Assembly (NCBI RefSeq): GCF_902713615.1
Contig: NC_052151.1
Span: 168,907,050 to 168,971,049, forward strand
Origin: Scyliorhinus canicula
Taxonomy: Eukaryota
DNA: 64,000 bases
Direction of reading: 5' to 3'
Part shown: positions 10,130 through 26,135 of the stretch, piece after piece
How the letters are laid out: the number at the start of each line of letters is the position of its first letter
Numbering within the stretch: position 1 is the stretch's first letter
Notes under the pieces: model-generated
The model's database searches: none
What the model saw: only the letters and a program-made list of their open reading frames with translations
What the model was told of the DNA's origin: nothing
Made by a program: the position numbers and the translations under genes

Positions 10130-11112
10130 TACGCATTGGATCATGAGAGAAAGGGAGGCTTATGGCAGATATCGAGGGTTCAAAACAGCAGAAGCCTGAG
10201 AGGCATATAGAATACGTAAGAGGGAACTTAAAAAGGAAATTACAAGAGCGAAAAGAGGACATGAAAGGATACTAACATAAAGGAAAATCCGAAGTTGATT
10301 TACAAGTAAAGATAATAAGATAACGAGGGAAAGAGTAGGGGCCATTAAGGACAGTTAATACTTTTTATTATTTAATAAAATTACAGTTGTAATTTGTGTG
10401 TGGAGCCAGAGGATGTAGGTAGGGTATAAATCAATACTTTGTTCACTAGTGAGAGGAATGATGTGGGTATCAAAATCAGAGAGAAGGACAGTGATAAAAT
10501 GAAATAAAGTAACAGAGAGAAGGTTCTGAGTGGTCTGTCAGGCTTAAAAAGTAGACAAATCTCCAGGGCCAGATGAAATGTATTCCAGGCTATTGAGTAA
10601 GGCAAGGGAGGAAATAGCAGGGGCACGGGTAATATTTTTCAGTTCCTCTCTGGTCACAGGAGAGGTGCCAGAGGACTGGAGGACAGTCAATGCGGTGCCT
10701 TTATTCAAGAAGGAAGGAAGGCATAAACCAGGAAACTACAGGCCAGTCAGTCTTACTTCAGTGGTGAGGAAATTATTGTGAGCAACTCTGAGGGACAGAA
10801 TTAATCTACATTTAGAGGAATCAATAACCAGAGATTTAAAGTAAGGGGCAGGAGGTTTAGAGGAGATGCGAGGACAAATATTTTTATCCAGAGGATGGTG
10901 GGAGTTTGGAACTCGCTGCTCGAATGGATGGTGAAGGTAGAGACCCTCATAATAATTTAGAAGTATTTAGATGTGCACTTGTAATGCCAAGGTGCACAAT
11001 ACTATGGGCCAAGAGCTAGGAAATGGGATTAGAATAGTTAGGTCGTTGGTTTTGACTGCCACAGGCTCAATGGGCCGAAGGGCCTTTTCTGTGCTGTATG
11101 ACTCCATGACTG
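10130..11112 (+). mobile_element. CR1 LINE, internally deleted ORF2 fragment with 3' end
   Basis: ORF 10578..10781 GEVPEDWRTVNAVPLFKKEGRHKPGNYRPVSLTSVV; 3' end GGGCCGAAGGGCC..CTGTGCTGTATGACTCCATGACT. Confidence 0.9.
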
Positions 11113-12345: not shown

Positions 12346-12516
12346 GAGCTGGATTCTCCATCCCACCGCGCCAGATTTCTGGTTCAGCACGCAGACGGGA
12401 TGCTCCGTTTCGCCGGCTGGTCAATGGGGTTTCCCATTATGTGGCAGCCCCATGCCGTCGGAAAACGCCCGGGTTGTAGGCAAAATGGAGAATCTCGCTA
12501 GTGGAGAATCCAGCCC
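12346..12516. mobile_element. Short Harbinger-type MITE (~170 bp)
   Basis: TIRs GAGCTGGATTCTCC / GGAGAATCCAGCCC; internal GGCTGGTCAATGGGGTTTCCCATT shared with the 19207-19376 copy. Confidence 0.85.
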
Positions 12517-15697: not shown

Positions 15698-16004
15698 TGT
15701 GGTGATCTCCATATGTATAGCAATGTATATAGTTGGATGTGTGACCTCCAACCAGCAGGTGGGGATGGTGATCCACCATGTAACTCCACAGCTCCACAGA
15801 TTAGGATTTGGTAGTAAATCATATTGGAGGACAGTTGCATGAGATGTAGCTCCAGGAGAATTCACTTATTTATTACCGTCTGTATTAGAGTTCATTAGTT
15901 ATCTTTCCACATGTTCATTTTGTTAATAAACTACCTTACTAATCAAAGAACTATATGTTCTTTACCACGGCCCTATTATATTCTGTGCATAATAGAATAT
16001 AACA
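15698..16004 (+). repeat. 5' LTR
   Basis: TGTGGTGAT...AATATAACA; aligns with 19572-19867 at roughly 85% by eye; contains AATAAA. Confidence 0.95.
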
Positions 16005-16017
16005 TGGCACCAAGAGT
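16005..16017 (+). promoter_or_regulatory. Primer binding site, probably tRNA-Leu(TAA)
   Basis: TGGCACCAAGAGT directly after the LTR; 11/13 match to TGGTACCAGGAGT, the complement of the vertebrate tRNA-Leu(TAA) 3' end as recalled. Confidence 0.7.
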
Positions 16018-16148
16018 ATAAAATAATTGAAAATAACTACAGAGAAGACAGGATGAAACAGACTGAAGAAAGAAAAAGAAAATTCTTCCACCTATCTGGT
16101 AAACTACGGGAAACTGGAACTCCATGCACGGAAAGACTAAAGTTAGAT

Positions 16149-16960
16149 TTGGAAGGGCTGACAACAACTCACCAGCTTCAAGTCACCAGTAATGTAGACG
16201 AGAATTGACGTGTTTTAAGCAGCAATTCAAACTCAGTGTTGTAGCCCTTGGCCTGCAGGCACAGCCTGACAAGAGTCCAATTGCATTGCTGCTCATAGTA
16301 GCAGCTCCTCAGCAATTGAAATTTACAATACATTCGCGTTCGATAGCGAAGGATAAAGCAAAACCTTCGATGAAGTAATAGAATACGTTGATCGACATTG
16401 CTCCCCAAAAAGAAATGAAACATTCCAGCGGTATATCTTTCGCAAGTCTACTCAGAAGGTGGGCAAATCGTTCGATAGTGTTCCAACCGAAGACGCAGTC
16501 GTGCAATTTTAATACATTAAAGATGTTGTGATCCGTGATTGGGATATCGAATGACAAGGTACGCGAGAGGCTTTTGAGGGAAGAAGACCTTCAATTAGAA
16601 AACACTCTGGAGATTTGTCATGTGAGCAAGCTAGCTGCACAGCAGATTAGTACGCTGAACCTGAAACATTTTGGCGCCAATGTACATGAAGACGCCAGCT
16701 TAGTGACGCATTCCAATAAGAAATGTTATCCCAGTGTGGGTGGCCATTTTAAACAGCCGACCAGATCCACCATTTTGTGCGCGTGATGTGGCAATTGACA
16801 TGAGCCACGGCAATGTCCAGCTTTTGGGAAAGAGTGTTCAAAGTGTGGCATAACAAATCATTTTGCGAAGCAACGTTTTTCACATCCAACAATGGACCAA
16901 ACCAGATCAGTCAACATGGTTGATGAGATGTGCATTGAATACCTGTTTTTCGTTGATCTG
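16149..16960 (+). pseudogene. gag: Gypsy gag with two zinc knuckles (stops and frameshifts)
   Basis: FKQQF..IALLL..AIEIYNTF..PKRNETFQRYIF..IGISNDKVRERLLREEDL; CxxC..H..CPAFGKECSKCG..NHFA at ~16777-16880. Confidence 0.9.
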
Positions 16961-17040
16961 ACTTTGACTGAGGACACGATAGGTTTGAATATGCAGTCTT
17001 ACTTACCAGTTGCAGCAATAGTGATGGTGATGCTGACACC

Positions 17041-17346
17041 ATGGAAGACAGATGGATAATACCATTGATGCTGGATGGCATTTTAATTAAATGCAAGCTT
17101 GACATGGGAGCGAGGTCCAACATTCTCAGTTTCATAGATTTGATCAGGCTGAGAGTCAAACCGACAGCCATCAATCAAACAAGTCTGCTGAGAGACTACA
17201 ATGGGATGGAGATTGCAACATTAGGCGCATGTGAGCTCGCAGCATGGGTACACAACAGAAGTCACACCCTATCATTTTCCATTGTGGACGTGGAATGGGA
17301 GTCCATCATAGGAGCTGAAGCATGCCAGGCAATGAACCTAGTTTAG
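17041..17346 (+). pseudogene. Retropepsin aspartic protease (active site D-T-G reads D-M-G)
   Basis: CKLDMGARSNI...LRDYNG..I.TLG...IIGAEACQAMNLV. Confidence 0.9.
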
Positions 17347-17370
17347 CAGCTGTACATTCCAGACAGCGCA

Positions 17371-18276
17371 GTGACAGAGGATCATTGCAAGTGGCAACGA
17401 GATGAAGTGGAACAGTTATCCGATTAGATAAAAGCAAAAGTCAAGGTGGAGGAAGATGAACCAGATGAAGAGATGGAGGAGCCAAAAGCAATTCCAGAAT
17501 TCTGGTTGATAGTCTTAAAAAATGTGGATTTGCTCAATGACATGATACAGGAGAATGCTGAGCCTTTCTTAAAGCATTTACAAGATTTACAGGTGAAATG
17601 TTCAGATCCTGGACAGCCAATGAGTTTTACTCTGGAGGATACATTTGAGCCAAATGAGTATTTTACAAATGAAGCAGTGACAAAAACATACCAGATGGCG
17701 TCACAGTCTGATGAGTCTGATTTTTTTTTCTTGGATGAAGCAGAAATCATTGGATGCACAGGGTGCCAGAACGACTGGAAGAAAGGAAAAAATATCACAT
17801 TGAAAACAATGAAGCAGGAGCATCAGGGCCAGAGCACTGGTAGAACAGTTACAAAAACTGTACCAAATGACTCTTTCTTCAATTTAATTAGTCCTCCTGA
17901 AGTTCCAGAGGATGGGGAACTGGATGAAGGTTCTGCGGCAAGACTCACTGCTGATTTTGAAATTGGTCATTTCATGCAGGAACACATAATTCCACAAGTA
18001 GTGTTGTACTTCACAAGAGAAGCTACAGCAGACGATAATGATGATGATTACGATGGTGATGAAGAAGATTACGATGAGGAAAGTGAAGAATCAGATGATA
18101 AGCCAGAAGAGGAAGACTATGAAAGTTTATTTAGTTTATTTGGCATTAGTGATGAGGTGATAATGAATAGCATCCAATCTGAGCAGAACAACGATGAGTG
18201 TGAAAGTTTGAAGATGGAGTGTGCAGAGGCTGAAAGTGAGATTGCAACAGCAAACAAATTATCTGAGAGCGAATAA
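17371..18276 (+). pseudogene. NAP1L1: Intronless, 5'-truncated NAP1L1 (nucleosome assembly protein 1-like) retrocopy; open from 17428 to 18276
   Basis: IPEFW..KNVDLL.DM.QE..EP.LKHL, GQPMSF, FEPNEYFTN, TKTY, IGCTGCQ.DWKKGKN.TLKT, NDSFFN, ADFEIGHF, IIP..VLYFT and acidic tail are collinear with vertebrate NAP1L1. In-frame TAG at 17425-17427. Confidence 0.93.
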
Positions 18277-18716
18277 ACTGTGAACAGCCAAATGGTGACT
18301 GAAGAAATAATCCCCATTTTGGAGAAAGTGGCTCCAGAGAAGTACGATGAATTATCCACGGAAAGGTTCCTGCAATGGATTCACAAGTATTCAAGGCCAG
18401 TCCAAAAAAAAACTTGCAGCAAGAACATATGAATACATTTTCATGCAGTTCTACAACAACAGATGAATCATTATATCAGATGAGGATGATCCACTAATTT
18501 AGACTCAAACACAAAGTGAAGTATTGAGGACATTGATCTAGCTAAGATACTGGAATGTGAGTGTTTGCAGATCATTCCTGAAGTTGCAAACTTGCCTGCA
18601 ACTGTGGATGCTCCAAGAGTATTCCGACATTAGATGCCTCACCTGTTGTTGGGCACGCAGTACAGCGTTCGTTCACAAGCACCATGGATCAACCAAAATA
18701 CCCCAATCCAGCAAAG

Positions 18717-18893
18717 GCTCCAGAATCAGCTATTGTGGCAGTAGAGTCAGAAACAACTTTCACAGCAGATGATCCAGAGACAGCTATTATTGCAGAAGAT
18801 CCAGACACAGCTATTCCAGTAGATGATCTAGAAGCAGCTGTTGCAGCAAAAGATCCAGAAGCAGCCATTGCAACAAGGGGTCCAGAAACAACT
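18717..18893 (+). repeat. 27-bp coding tandem repeat, about 6.5 units (D-P-E-T/A-A-I-x-A-x)
   Basis: GATCCAGARRCAGCTATT-like units at 27-bp spacing within ORF 18684..18944. Confidence 0.85.
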
Positions 18894-19206
18894 AAACCCT
18901 TGACCGAGACCAATAGCCAGAATGATGCTCTAGGTGCACAGTGAGATGCGAGTGTGAATCGCAAAAATTTCACTGATGATGCCACTAAAGCTAAGAAGAA
19001 AAGGAGAAGGAAAGTGCTGATTATAAAAAAGAGAAGGAAGGATAAGAGAAGAGTTGAGGACACAGTTGCTCGACTGGGTAGCAGACGCGACAGTGAAGAC
19101 ACAAGCATCGGCAATAAGGCCAATATGCAAGAACACACACTGTGTAGGAAGCATCGCTTCAAAAGGCTGAAAGAGATGGTGATTCAAAGACCAGCCAGAA
19201 AACCAG

Positions 19207-19376
19207 GGCTGGATTCTCCGCCCCGCCACACCACATTTCTGGCCCGACCCGCTGGTGGGATTCTCCGTTACGCCGGCTGGTCAATGGGGTTTCCCATTGT
19301 GGGGCAGCCCCACGCCATCAGGAAACCCCCTGGGCGCCGGCAAAACGGAGAATCCTGCCTGCGGAAAATCATGCCC
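19207..19376. mobile_element. Short Harbinger MITE nested in the LTR element, TSD CAG
   Basis: GGCTGGATTCTCC...GGAAAATCATGCCC flanked by CAG at 19204-19206 and 19377-19379. Confidence 0.9.
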
Positions 19377-19559
19377 CAGGTCTTTCGAAAGATGAAACAA
19401 GGTCATGTGTTTGGTTAAGATTTAGGAGATCAACAAGAAGATGCCATTAACCTGAAAGACTGAACATGTAACGAACTGTGTACAAGGGACACGTTTGAAA
19501 TTGTTACGCATGTCATGTTTTGTAATGCACAGTTAGATTTGTTAAACATTCACATTTCC

Positions 19560-19571
19560 AAAGGAAGGGGA
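19560..19571 (+). promoter_or_regulatory. Polypurine tract
   Basis: AAAGGAAGGGGA immediately before the 3' LTR. Confidence 0.85.
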
Positions 19572-19867
19572 TGTGGTGATATGCATCCGCATAGCAATGT
19601 ATATCATTGGATGTTTGACCTCCAACCAGCAGGTGGGGTGTGGTGATCCTTTATGTGACTCCACAGATCAGGAGTTGGTAGTAAGTTATACTAGAGGGCG
19701 GTTTGCATTAGAAGTAGCCCCAGGAGAATTCACTTATTTGTTACTGTCTGTATTAGAGTTTGTTAGTTATCTTTCCACGTGTTCATTTTGTTAATAACTA
19801 TCTTACTAATCAAAGAACTAGATGTTCTGTGCGCACCTTTACCACAGCCACAACACAGAACATAGCA
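19572..19867 (+). repeat. 3' LTR
   Basis: TGTGGTGATATGCAT...AGAACATAGCA followed by TSD GCTAA. Confidence 0.95.
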
Positions 19868-22439: not shown

Positions 22440-22519
22440 TTCACCCCCTGTTAAAAAGGAGTCCAGCGGGGGTGGTGGAAACTATTTACATACAGGTTGT
22501 TAAAAACATTTTGAAAGAG

Positions 22520-23590
22520 TCGACAAATTTAGACGGTCGGGCGCCTTGATCCGCCATTGCGAGCGCCGCAGGTGTGGTGTTGATGCTGGCGTTGGTTCGG
22601 TCGTCGGTGACTCCAGGAGCGTCATCTTCATCCACGGGTGGGACCAAGGGGAGGGTAGATCATCCTGGAACGGGGGCTGTGGCGGGGTGCGCCGGGGGAG
22701 GGGGGGGGCTGTGCGGGGACCCGGCTGGTGCCAGGTCCGGGAGGGAGACTGTGTCTTGGTGGCCGTCGCGGTACGTGCGGGTTCGCGTGGCGTAGCTGTA
22801 CCCTCTCAACCAACGGGTCCGCCTTGTGGAGCCACACGCGCTTACAGAGGAGAACGGGTCCTGGAGCTGCCAGCCATGTTGGGAGCGAAACCCCGAAGGT
22901 GGACTTCCTAGGGAAGGCAAAGAGACGTTCATGGGGAGTTTCGTTAGTCGCAGTACACAGGGGCGACCAAATGGAGTGAAGGGTATCGGGGAGGACCTCC
23001 TGCCAGCGGGAGGCCGGGAGATTTCTGGACCATAGGGCCAGCTGGACGCCTTCCAGACCTTCCCATTCTCCCGCTCCACCTGCCCGTTTCCCCGGGGGTT
23101 GTAGCTGGTCGTCCTGCTCGAGGCAATGCCCCTGTTGAATAGGTACTGGCACAGCTCATCGCTCATGAATGAGGATTCCCAGTCGCTGTGGATGTAGGCG
23201 GGGAAACCGAACAGAGCGAAGATGGTGTTAAGGGCTTTGATGACGGTGGCAAACGTCATGTCGGGGCATGGGACGGTGAAGTGGAATCGCGAATACTCGT
23301 CGACCACATTGAGAAAATACGTGTTGTGGTTGGTGGAGGGAAGGGACCCTTTGAAGTCCACGCTGAGGCGTTCAAAGGGGTGGGAGGCCTTCACCAGGCA
23401 TGCATGGTCCGGCCGGTAGAAGTGCGGCTTACACTCTGTGCAGACCTGGCAATCTCTGTTGATAGCCCTGAATTCCTTGATGGAATAGGGCAGATTGTGG
23501 TCCTTTATGAAGTGGTAAAAGCAGGTGACCCCTGGGTGACAGAGATCGTCGTGGAGGGTGTGGAGTCGGTCTACTTGTGCGCTGGCACAT
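22520..23590 (-). pseudogene. Gypsy integrase (HHCC, DDE core, C-terminal LRRSQWRIKAPDRLNL)
   Basis: ORF 22660..23394 PFERLSVDFKG..VVDEYSRF..IHSD..YNPRGNGQVEREN; frameshifted. Confidence 0.92.
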
Positions 23591-23595
23591 GTACC

Positions 23596-24930
23596 TCAGG
23601 ATAGGGCATCAGGGGGTTTGTTAAGCTTCCCGGGGCGATATAAAGTCTCGGAATTGTAGGTGGAGAGCTCAATCCTCCTCCTCAAGATCTTATCATTTTT
23701 GATCTTGCCCCACTGTGTGTTGTTAAACATGAAGGCAACCATCCGTTGGTCAGTGAGGAAAGTGAATCTCCTGCCGGCCAGGAAATGCCTCCAATGTCGC
23801 ACAGTTTCTACGATGGCCTGGGCCTCCTTTTCGGAGGCATGGAGGGTGCGGGAAAAGAATGCCACGGGCCTGCCTGCCTGGTTGAGGGTGGCTGCCAGAG
23901 CGACGTCTGATGCATCGCTCTCGACTTGAAAGGGGAGCGTCACGTCGTCCGTGTGCATCGCGGCCTTGGCGATGTCGGCCTTGATACGGTTGAAGGCCTG
24001 GTGATCCTCGGCCGTCAGTGGAAAAGTGGTGGATTAAATGAGGGGGCGGGCCTTTGGGCGTAGTACAAAAAGAACCCCAGGCATCGTTTTAAGGCCTTGG
24101 GGCAGTGGGGGAGGGGGAGTTCCATGAGGGGTCGCATGCGATCGGGGTTGGGCCCTCGAACTCCGTTCTGGACCACGTAGCCGAGGATGGCTAATCGGTC
24201 TGTGCTGAACACACACTTCTCCTTGTTGTAGGTTAGGTTAAGGAGTTTGGCGGTGTGGAGGAATTTGGAAAGGTTAGCGTTGTGGTCCTGCTGTTGTGGC
24301 CGCAGGTGGTGACGTTGTCCAGGTATGGGAAAGTGGCCCACAGTCAGTACCCGTCAATCATTCGGCCCATCTCCCGTTGGAAGACTGAGACCCTGTTATG
24401 ACGCCGAAGGGAACGCTAAGGAAATAGTAAAGGCGGCCATCTGCTTCAAATGTGGTATACTGGCAGTCTGCCTTGCAAATGGGGAGCTGGTGGAAGGCAG
24501 ATTTCAGGCCCACTGTCGAGAAGACCCGGTACTGTGCAATCTGATTGACCATATCAGATATGTGTGGGAGGGGGTACGCGTCGTGCTGCGTGTACCGATT
24601 GATTGTCTGACTGTAGTCAACGACCATCCTGTTTTTCTCCCCGGTTTTTACCACGACCACTTAGGCTCTCCAGGGGCTGTTGCTGGCCTTGATAATACCT
24701 TCCCGTAGCAGCTGCTGGACTTCAGATCTGATGAAGGTCCTGTCCTGGGCACTGTACCGTCTGCTCCTGGTGGCGATGGGTTTGCAATCTGAGGTGAGGT
24801 TCACAAACAGGGAAGGTGAGTTGACCTTAAGGGTCATGAGGCCGCATACAGTAAGGAGTGGTAGGGGCCCGCCAAATTTCAAGGTTAAGCTCTGGAGGTT
24901 GCACTGGCAGTCCAGGCCGAGTAGCAAGGC
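23596..24930 (-). pseudogene. Gypsy reverse transcriptase and RNase H
   Basis: SPWRA, RMVVDYSQTINR, DAYPLP, LKSAFHQ, PFG, YLDNV; VESDASDVALAATL..RPVAFFSRTL..EKEA..TDQ. Confidence 0.92.
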
Positions 24931-24959
24931 AGTGCAGAGGTTGGGGAGGACATAGAGGC

Positions 24960-25200
24960 GGAAGCCACTGAACTCTACGCCTCAAATGGTGAGGGTGGCA
25001 GTGAAGTACCACTGAGTGGGATCCGGAAGCCAGGGAGATTCTCTGGTTGGTGGGGTGGACCGTGAGGGAGCAGCGCCTTACTGTATCGGGGTGGATGAAG
25101 CTCTTAGAGCTCCCGGAGTCTAGAAGGCAGGAATCCTTGTGCCCGTCGATCTTCACCGTCATCGATGCGGTCGCGAGGTTGTGCAGTCGTGTCAGGTCAA
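24960..25200 (-). pseudogene. Gypsy aspartic protease
   Basis: VKIDGHKDSCLLDSGSSKSFI in ORF 24827..25348. Confidence 0.88.
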
Positions 25201-25279
25201 TCGTAATGAAGGCCAGGCGTGGCTGGTCGGCGGTGGTTGCAGGAGATGAGTGGCTCGATGAGGTGTCTGACGAGCAGGG

Positions 25280-25490
25280 ATCCTGAGGCGGGGAAGATGG
25301 CGGCACCCACAGGCCGCATGTGTCCTGAGGCGGGCAAGATGGCAGCACCCACGGGCCGCATGTGTGAGGCGAGCAAGATAGCGAGTAAGATGGCGGCGCC
25401 CACGGGCCGCACGTGTTGCGAGGGGAGCATAATAGCGGCGCCCACAGGCCGCTCGTGGTCTGCGGGGAGGAAGATGGCGGCGCCTGGGGG
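25280..25490. repeat. GC-rich minisatellite (~42-51 bp units, about 5 copies) in the gag-PR linker
   Basis: Repeated AAGATGGCGGCRCCCACRGGCCGCA. Confidence 0.85.
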
Positions 25491-25492
25491 TT

Positions 25493-26135
25493 TCACATGG
25501 GGGGCGCCGGGGCAACAGCGGTGACCGAGCAGGTCTGGCACACAGCAGCAAAATGTCCTTTCTTACCGCAGGCCTTGCAGAGTGCGCTCCATGCCGGGCA
25601 GTGTTGTCGGGGGTGCTTTGACTGTCTGCAGAAGTGGAACTTGGGTCCCCCAGGGTTGTGTGGTTGCGGCGTGGCGCAGGCCTGGGGTTGGCTGGGGGCG
25701 GTCGCTGATGGGGTGCACTGTAGGGTGTTCACTGGCGGGGTGCACGATGTCCAGGAGGGTTGGGCGGCGCGGACGGGGGCATGCGCTTGAATATTGCACG
25801 AGGCAACTGTGAGCGAGAGCGCTAGTTTCTTGGTTGCCGCGAGGTCGAGGGTAACCCCTTCTAAGAGTCGCTGGCAGATGTAGGCCGACTCTATGCCTGT
25901 AACGAAGGCGTCTCTAAGTAGCAAGTCCGAATGTTCAGAGGCCGAGACGACCTGGCAATCGCAGTCTCTCACTAGGAGTTGCAGGGCACGCCAGAAATCC
26001 TCCACAGACTAACCGGGGAGTTGATGCCGCATGGCGCGGAGGTACCTGGGGTAGACCTTGTTGGTCTGCTGCGTGCAGTTCTTCAGTTTTGCCATGGCCT
26101 CAGCGTATGTCGGCGCATCCGGATGAGGGGGAAGA
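25493..26135 (-). pseudogene. gag: Gypsy gag with zinc knuckles
   Basis: LLRDAFVTGI..ICQRLLE; CPAWSALCKACGKKGHFAAVC. Confidence 0.9.

Follow-up and report, generated by a model that had tools for sequence, protein, structure and literature searches.

A catshark (Scyliorhinus canicula) locus at which a NAP1L1-like reading frame follows a protease frame raises two questions: whether both once belonged to a single polyprotein, and what such a fusion would have done for the element that encoded it. The locus was analyzed within a window of 64,000 nucleotides, that is, the whole stretch of DNA to which all positions below refer. An initial annotation had described two open reading frames in a shared frame, separated only by TAG codons at 17344-17346 and 17425-17427, and had proposed that NAP1 was translated within a polyprotein and could have been packaged in particles and released by the protease.

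Element anatomy and the ancestral frame

Both reading frames belong to one decayed member of a non-autonomous family of Ty3/Gypsy-type LTR elements, about 4.2 kb long (15698-19867; Table 1), with paired TG...CA LTRs, a short target duplication, a tRNA primer site and a polypurine tract. In the window copy gag is disrupted by stops and small indels; its start codon is placed by the family column at 16149 (15 of 17 copies), and its CCHC knuckle gives a weak match to zf-CCHC (E 0.039). The gag of a sister copy resembles K02A2.6-like Gypsy polyproteins (best E 1e-34 to 3e-34; seven matches among 685 candidates) and the protease is 25-46% identical to the proteases of RT-bearing Gypsy loci (tblastn), while a protein search with the protease alone returned no matches. 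The protease, previously labeled retroviral-type, is thus of Ty3/Gypsy type. An endogenous retrovirus (Retroviridae) was considered and ruled out, the nearest gag relatives being Gypsy polyproteins and the LTRs enclosing no env-like or pol ORF.

Table 1 Features of the NAP-bearing element in the window.
Feature	Position	Strand	Basis or remark
Left 5-bp target-site duplication, GCTAA	15693..15697	+	Identical 5 bases after 3' LTR
5' LTR, TG...CA ends	15698..16004	+	Aligned to 3' LTR, K2P 0.132, 267 sites
Primer-binding site, complementary to tRNA-Leu(UAA) 3' end	16005..16018	+	LTR-adjoining sequences of copies match host tRNA-Leu(taa) genes
gag, capsid-like part then CCHC knuckle (~16832-16873)	16149..16900	+	Start column, zf-CCHC, Gypsy matches
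gag-protease linker	16901..17040	+	Window copy frameshifted by private deletion after 16994
Gypsy-type aspartic protease	17041..17346	+	Catalytic motif 17101-17109 altered in window copy; private TAG at end
Protease-NAP junction	17347..17373	+	Position of PR-RT linker in autonomous relatives
Captured intronless NAP1L1 piece	17374..18102	+	Pfam NAP E 3.8e-59, profile 68-266; host exon DNA matches
In-frame tail, acidic then basic	18103..19463	+	Family stop column 19461 (12/15); no majority stop earlier
27-bp in-frame tandem repeat inside tail	18703..18890	+	Period-27 matches
Lysine/arginine-rich stretch, putatively nuclear-localisation-like	18987..19052	+	Translation; comparable stretches in sister copies L081, L082
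Later insertion, unrelated short repeat, private to window copy	19208..19378	.	Present in 1/39 copies
Polypurine tract	19560..19571	+	
3' LTR	19572..19867	+	Pairs with 5' LTR
Right 5-bp target-site duplication, GCTAA	19868..19872	+	Same as left

The NAP piece had been placed directly after the protease, where reverse transcriptase (RT) normally follows, and comparison with Gypsy relatives bears this out: in the relative P0122 the equivalent protease end runs on into RT. More generally, fish K02A2.6-like Ty3/Gypsy polyproteins (P0121-P0125) carry a related gag and protease in one frame with the same protease end, but continue to RT-RNaseH-integrase, whereas the shark element continues to NAP1L1 and a tail. 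When 67 copies were scanned with the pol of a relative, none had RT-RNaseH-integrase in place of NAP, and weak pol matches in three of them lay at the edge, upstream or on the opposite strand. Lacking pol, the element is non-autonomous and needs the enzymes of a helper, and its assignment to the Ty3/Gypsy clade is therefore drawn only from gag and protease. No helper was found among 30 RT-bearing loci compared (of 150 matches); the best candidates at these 30 loci reached 36-48% protein identity to the element, with no more than two short stretches matching at the DNA level. Another Gypsy family in the genome, young and autonomous, has open frames of ~1436 codons and dozens of near-identical matches (G000:C20:86457946 and many others). 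With a protease just ~31% identical to that of the element, it is probably not the helper.

The ORF ending at 17346 and the ORF at 17428-18276 do share a frame (both mod 3 = 1), and both intervening TAG codons proved to be private to the window copy, stops being present in 0 of 29 copies at each column. In a second set of copies, stops were found at 17344 in 0/28 and 0/30 and at 17425 in 1/28 and 1/29. Between anchors at 17320-17440 the commonest length was that of the window (identical in 15 and in frame in 17 of 28 copies). Stop-free columns and anchor lengths together support a genuine shared frame and go beyond the one-in-three chance agreement against which the initial annotation had cautioned. 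Its second ORF end stood less well: the frame is shared, but the TAA at 18274 that closes the ORF at 18276 is private to the window copy (0 of 17 others), so that the family frame extends well past this point.

Called column by column, every segment shows a frame in which no stop is in the majority, in copies that were chosen as best junction matches and hence were selected for having the junction. Across copies, gag, protease and NAP1 form a single open frame from about 16149 to 19461 (~1,050 codons), in the order gag, protease, intronless NAP1L1 piece and a tail of some 400 codons beyond NAP. The frame is identical in the two subfamilies compared below, between which the only fixed indels measure 9, 6 and 60 bases; a low-complexity GAT stretch aligns ambiguously, with anchored lengths across it in frame in 22 of 30 copies. 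We are all but certain that gag, protease and NAP1 formed one ancestral fusion frame. Among the best 150 matches listed for the protease-NAP read-through query (50% representatives), no protein joined protease and NAP. For the tail no Pfam match above the cut-off was obtained. Its 27-bp repeat has grown to arrays of more than 1 kb in copies L041 and L050, and the short repeat inserted in the tail of the window copy has a 78% match elsewhere in the window (12348-12516).

Other mobile sequences were seen nearby. On the minus strand, 22500-26010 holds a second, unrelated decayed Gypsy-type element with pieces of gag, protease, RT, RNase H and integrase (Pfam, ORFs). From their translations, we take 326-862 to be a fragment resembling a Harbinger-type transposase and 10548-10781 a fragment resembling a CR1/L2-type LINE RT. 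Furthermore, part of the catshark gene model P0126, for a PKD-repeat protein, is 75% identical to the gag of the NAP-element family and represents either an exonised piece or an annotation error.

The captured NAP1L1 piece and the spread of the family

The best protein matches of the NAP ORF are Scyliorhinus gene models and shark NAP1L1. Its identification as NAP1L1 was right for the TEDHCKW stretch, which matches host gene DNA from 17374 onward, and needs narrowing in that only the part after about residue 125 is present. Seven host NAP1L1 exons are matched in order at 77-87% with the introns gone; the match starts about 34 nt inside an exon and ends at 18102, short of the last coding exons. 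Free of introns and beginning mid-exon, the match indicates a spliced mRNA joined at a position other than an exon boundary. This mRNA replaced RT-RNaseH-integrase in frame at the protease-RT linker, probably by template switching during reverse transcription, as the mid-exon junction and the known mechanism of LTR-mediated retroposition (PMC5131818) suggest. An intronless host sequence replacing internal ORFs between LTRs is also what characterizes LTR-mediated retrocopies. A processed pseudogene made by a LINE was rejected, since the host match falls short of the mRNA 3' end and the frame runs on into the tail. The host NAP1L1 gene with its introns and a paralogue, likely NAP1L4, lie at G000:C20:48551729-48608387 and C9:127717671-127725415.

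The captured piece comprises the accessory region, the earmuff domain with its basic hairpin and the beginning of the acidic tail. These are parts of NAP1L1/NAP family chaperones (PDB 7un6, 6k00), from which the shark piece differs in lacking the N-terminal helices and the dimerisation helix and in being embedded in a polyprotein. In the modeled shark NAP1L1 P0004 the long helix spans residues 76-125, and the capture begins at about 131. The accessible parts of two studies assign dimer formation to this helix (PMC13255070; PMC9128123). Since the piece begins after it, it cannot form the normal NAP1 dimer. According to the same sources in part, worm NAP1 holds H2A-H2B through the helices and acidic tail of one monomer (PMC13255070), and in yeast NAP1 the export signal lies within the helix region, missing here, and the import signal within the hairpin, kept here (PMC9128123).

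A model of the NAP core reached a pLDDT of ~90 and matched NAP1L1 structures in Foldseek at E 1e-22. Folding the protease-NAP read-through with a NAP-only alignment mis-modeled the protease as helices (pLDDT <60), and structural statements here refer to the NAP core model only. A complex prediction of the window NAP piece with host H2A-H2B, in which the alignment was not used, scored 0.02 and bears neither way on binding. Columns that are acidic in the host are still acidic at 28 of 31 positions in the window's group and at 20 of 31 in the later subfamily, which retains 43 of 57 host hydrophobic columns; judged from these columns, the fold appears to be conserved more clearly than the histone-binding face in the later subfamily.

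The family has spread to more than 100 genomic places. Searches with the junction (821 candidates, 40 scored, 40/40 matching), with shark NAP1L1 (2697 candidates, 104 scored, 107 matches) and with a divergent copy (897 candidates, 40 scored) give numbers of candidates and matches, not copy numbers. All 107 matches to shark NAP1L1 (104 scored of the 2697) begin at residue 128 or later. The LTR pairs of 21 copies diverge by 0.10-0.20 (median 0.15), indicating an old family, with no clock applied. DNA contigs of a second species cover 30/30 bins of the element, and S. torazame gene models contain the same fusion parts. In a tree of 63 copies and the host, from which four of 67 copies were left out as too short, the host falls among the window-like copies and the other subfamilies are set on a ladder of internal branches. 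NAP is retained in all sampled subfamilies.

Selection on capsid, NAP and protease

Selection was assessed between group A, the junction-query set minus nine copies outside the window's clade, and group B, the 30 divergent-copy-query loci representing the later subfamily. Per segment, copies with less than 60% coverage or with large insertions were dropped, leaving (A/B) 12/15 for gag, 29/30 for protease-junction, 24/24 for NAP and 19/14 for the tail. Synonymous and non-synonymous differences fixed between A and B were compared with those of single-copy variants, which served as the neutral yardstick; the dN/dS of copies within their own group was rejected for this purpose since it was 0.4-0.7 and not 1. 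Strong constraint was observed for gag (51.5/14.5 fixed vs 139/333 single-copy; ratio 0.12, p 2e-14; 0.10 with CpG dropped) and for the NAP core (31.5/23.5 vs 125/469; ratio 0.20, p 3e-8; CpG dropped 0.18). The protease (8.5/22.5 vs 78/226; ratio 0.91, p 1; CpG dropped 0.76) and the junction (4/14 vs 33/137; ratio 0.84; CpG dropped 0.79) were near-neutral, and the tail gave 38/65 vs 87/250 (ratio 0.59; CpG dropped 0.40). Net divergence over all pairs, a measure that uses no yardstick, was 0.03 for the capsid, 0.22 (0.14-0.35) for the NAP core and 0.71 (0.39-1.21) for the protease, in agreement with the fixed-difference ratios; the corresponding values inside the groups were 0.4-0.7.

A comparison with host NAP1L1, suggested by the initial annotation, gave a dN/dS of 0.15 (0.07-0.31) between host and window-like copies over the NAP core, not about 1; of 20 amino-acid differences, 17 fall on the element's side. 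Since the host branch plays no part in the A-B comparison, the selection seen there acted during the element's own replication. It is highly probable that purifying selection on the NAP piece served the element itself. Repeated captures of host mRNA were rejected as the cause of the low dN, since the derived clade also stands farther from the host in synonymous change (dS 1.13 vs 0.27). Synonymous divergence between A and B differs by region (capsid 1.55, NAP 0.50, tail saturated), so that recombination may blur the subfamily comparison. In the capsid part (gag 16150-16660) it is about three times that of NAP or protease, which may reflect a gag swap by recombination, or saturation.

A chance in-frame retrocopy without selection, or a domesticated host gene family, is very hard to reconcile with these data. 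Animals commonly carry LTR-mediated retrocopies, and young ones are often in frame, as far as the accessible part of one survey goes (PMC5131818), but the fixed differences found here are strongly biased to synonymous ones; moreover, single copies decay with stops and frameshifts, showing that the host is not preserving them, which argues against domestication. Selection might instead have kept only the frame open, for example against nonsense-mediated decay, with NAP as a passenger whose folding allowed Gag to assemble. This explanation, which we regard as improbable, would account for the open frame through a dead protease, and the conserved positions are mostly core; it is opposed by the near-neutral protease of the same polyprotein, in which synonymous and non-synonymous fixed differences stand at 8/23 vs 32/23 in NAP (p 0.006), and by the retention of NAP in every sampled subfamily.

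The history of the protease is informative in its own right. A full catalytic D-[S/T]-G motif was present in 11 of 29 A copies vs 0 of 29 B copies (by position 22, 18 and 23 of 29 in A; 24, 1 and 8 of 29 in B). Of 33 further copies, 8 have the motif, 19 have an altered form of it and 6 could not be aligned there; no copy of the most derived clade has it. Protease changes show mild constraint on the leg from A to intermediate copies (8/8, p 0.04) and a neutral-like pattern on the leg from these to B (12/27, p 0.56), while NAP was constrained on both legs. Over linker, protease and junction, about 225 fixed substitutions would, on a rough estimate, be expected to bring about 11 stops, with none fixed and no fixed indel, and no internal Met column is common to both subfamilies. 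A frame kept open through a drifting protease, together with the lack of a shared internal Met, implies that NAP could only be produced joined to Gag, as the initial annotation had supposed. Its further suggestion, release of NAP1 by the element's own protease, is not supported as it stood, given a motif that early-branching copies have but all 29 later-subfamily copies lack, and given the near-neutral protease and junction. Cleavage by this protease appears to have been dispensable, at least late; the helper's protease may have cleaved the fusion, though the junction is not conserved.

A possible role for the Gag-NAP fusion

Co-assembly of NAP into particles is the simplest inference from a conserved capsid and a forced fusion. 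We consider it somewhat probable that the locus is a decayed non-autonomous Gypsy element whose Gag-NAP1 fusion was borne by particles and supplied the new DNA copy with a module directed to the nucleus and able to handle histones; for a particle-borne chromatin role of the NAP module as such, the chances appear roughly even. Copying needed a helper's enzymes, pol being absent. Capsid and NAP core stayed conserved, while the protease, mildly constrained early, drifted later and served as an open-frame spacer. Gag would have carried the NAP module into particles and clustered a monomeric earmuff that, without the dimerisation helix and the export signal, kept the basic hairpin and acidic tail. 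It may have helped the cDNA reach or handle chromatin, through entry into the nucleus or by exchanging H2A-H2B on the cDNA or its target. Such a particle-borne monomeric histone-handling or import module is favored by the worm mode of H2A-H2B binding, the lost export and kept import signal and the basic stretch of the tail. Against it, 11 of the 31 columns that are acidic in the host have lost their acidic residue in the later subfamily, compared with three in the window's group. The splice-acceptor-like site and gene model described next also tell against it, as does the absence of a helper among the loci compared. The fuller account, in which the lineage dropped its own enzymes, fused a monomeric host chaperone to its capsid, delivered it with each DNA copy for chromatin handling and thereby out-replicated others via a helper, is tentative, with slightly less than an even chance.

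NAP may alternatively have acted on the integrated element, a fusion or spliced Gag-NAP form in the nucleus opening the chromatin of the LTR promoter or interfering with host NAP1L1, and thus raising transcription of the family. The import-type basic stretches kept and the export-signal region lost would suit this, as would a splice-acceptor-like AG at 17362, just before NAP (23/29 and 18/29 copies, by a loose criterion with no chance control), and gene model P0046, which joins gag to NAP and skips the protease. A product acting in trans on all copies should, as a general argument, weaken selection on the encoding copy, and strong capsid conservation with the open frame through the dead protease ties NAP to Gag; we therefore think this unlikely. 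Somewhat less likely still is a general acidic chaperone for basic particle proteins (nucleocapsid, basic tail or the helper's integrase), aiding assembly or winning helper enzymes and playing no part in histone handling. In its favor, the element relies on a helper and the NAP fold outlasts the host's acidic pattern, and human NAP1 is described, in the part of the source available, as binding the basic domain of HIV-1 Rev and preventing its aggregation. That same text has the Rev site using both monomers and helix 1, which is missing from the captured piece (PMC13255070), and this reading, too, is weakened by the acidic residues that the later subfamily has lost. The particle-borne module remains our preferred reading, with both of these alternatives as serious competitors.

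Defective acutely transforming retroviruses likewise have host coding sequence fused in frame to Gag, have lost pol and need a helper. Such Gag-oncogene retroviruses are short-lived, exogenous and selected for tumour growth, whereas in the shark a Gypsy lineage of the germline was under selection along a long internal branch. Among Gypsy elements, chromoviruses and others bear a chromatin-reading module on the integrase of an autonomous element; a chromatin-related domain is common to both, but in the shark element it is a recently captured host chaperone on the Gag of a pol-less element.

Closest in kind are the LTR-mediated animal retrocopies of Tan et al. (PMC5131818), in which, as described in the accessible text, spliced host mRNA also replaces part of the internal ORFs between LTRs and moves non-autonomously; theirs are young, few-copy and mostly decaying, in contrast to the more than 100 scored copies, several subfamilies and purifying selection seen here. 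Maize Bs1 is similarly an LTR element that has transduced host coding sequence and transposed again with its switch points fixed; it differs, in the portions available (PMC5131818, PMC7264820), in its one to five copies, plant host, several donor genes and lack of a chromatin protein. No report of a NAP1-bearing retrotransposon was found in the literature covered, mostly abstracts, with Repbase, Dfam and subscription journals outside this scope; a term search of the main text of the catshark genome paper (PMC11979771) gave no mention of NAP1.

Host-gene capture by LTR elements is a known kind of event; the novelty lies in its scale here, in the function captured and in the selection demonstrated for the captured domain. 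Captured host pieces usually decay. In the shark, by contrast, selection on the element itself maintained a host chromatin chaperone across several subfamilies, even as the element's own protease was abandoned. This points to a limit on retrotransposition at histone handling or nuclear entry, and suggests that a NAP1 earmuff without the dimer helix can be useful. If true, the fuller account above reverses the usual direction, in which hosts domesticate Gag. The captured piece also explains the spurious NAP1L1-like catshark gene models P0001, P0002, P0005, P0046 and P0100.

In two RNA runs, the gag and protease bins had depths below 2 and the NAP bins depths of 70-280; an RNA run of organism B, with 6 of 30 bins covered, was set aside. 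The loose end of the NAP-bin reads matches a host exon, which together with their depth indicates that these reads are mostly host mRNA. With gag and protease nearly silent in both runs, present-day expression lends no support to the fusion. Over the element-specific tail (18082-18373), RNA depths of 3-15 were observed on the same strand as the NAP reads; these reads lie beyond the host match, suggesting that some copy may be transcribed at a low level.
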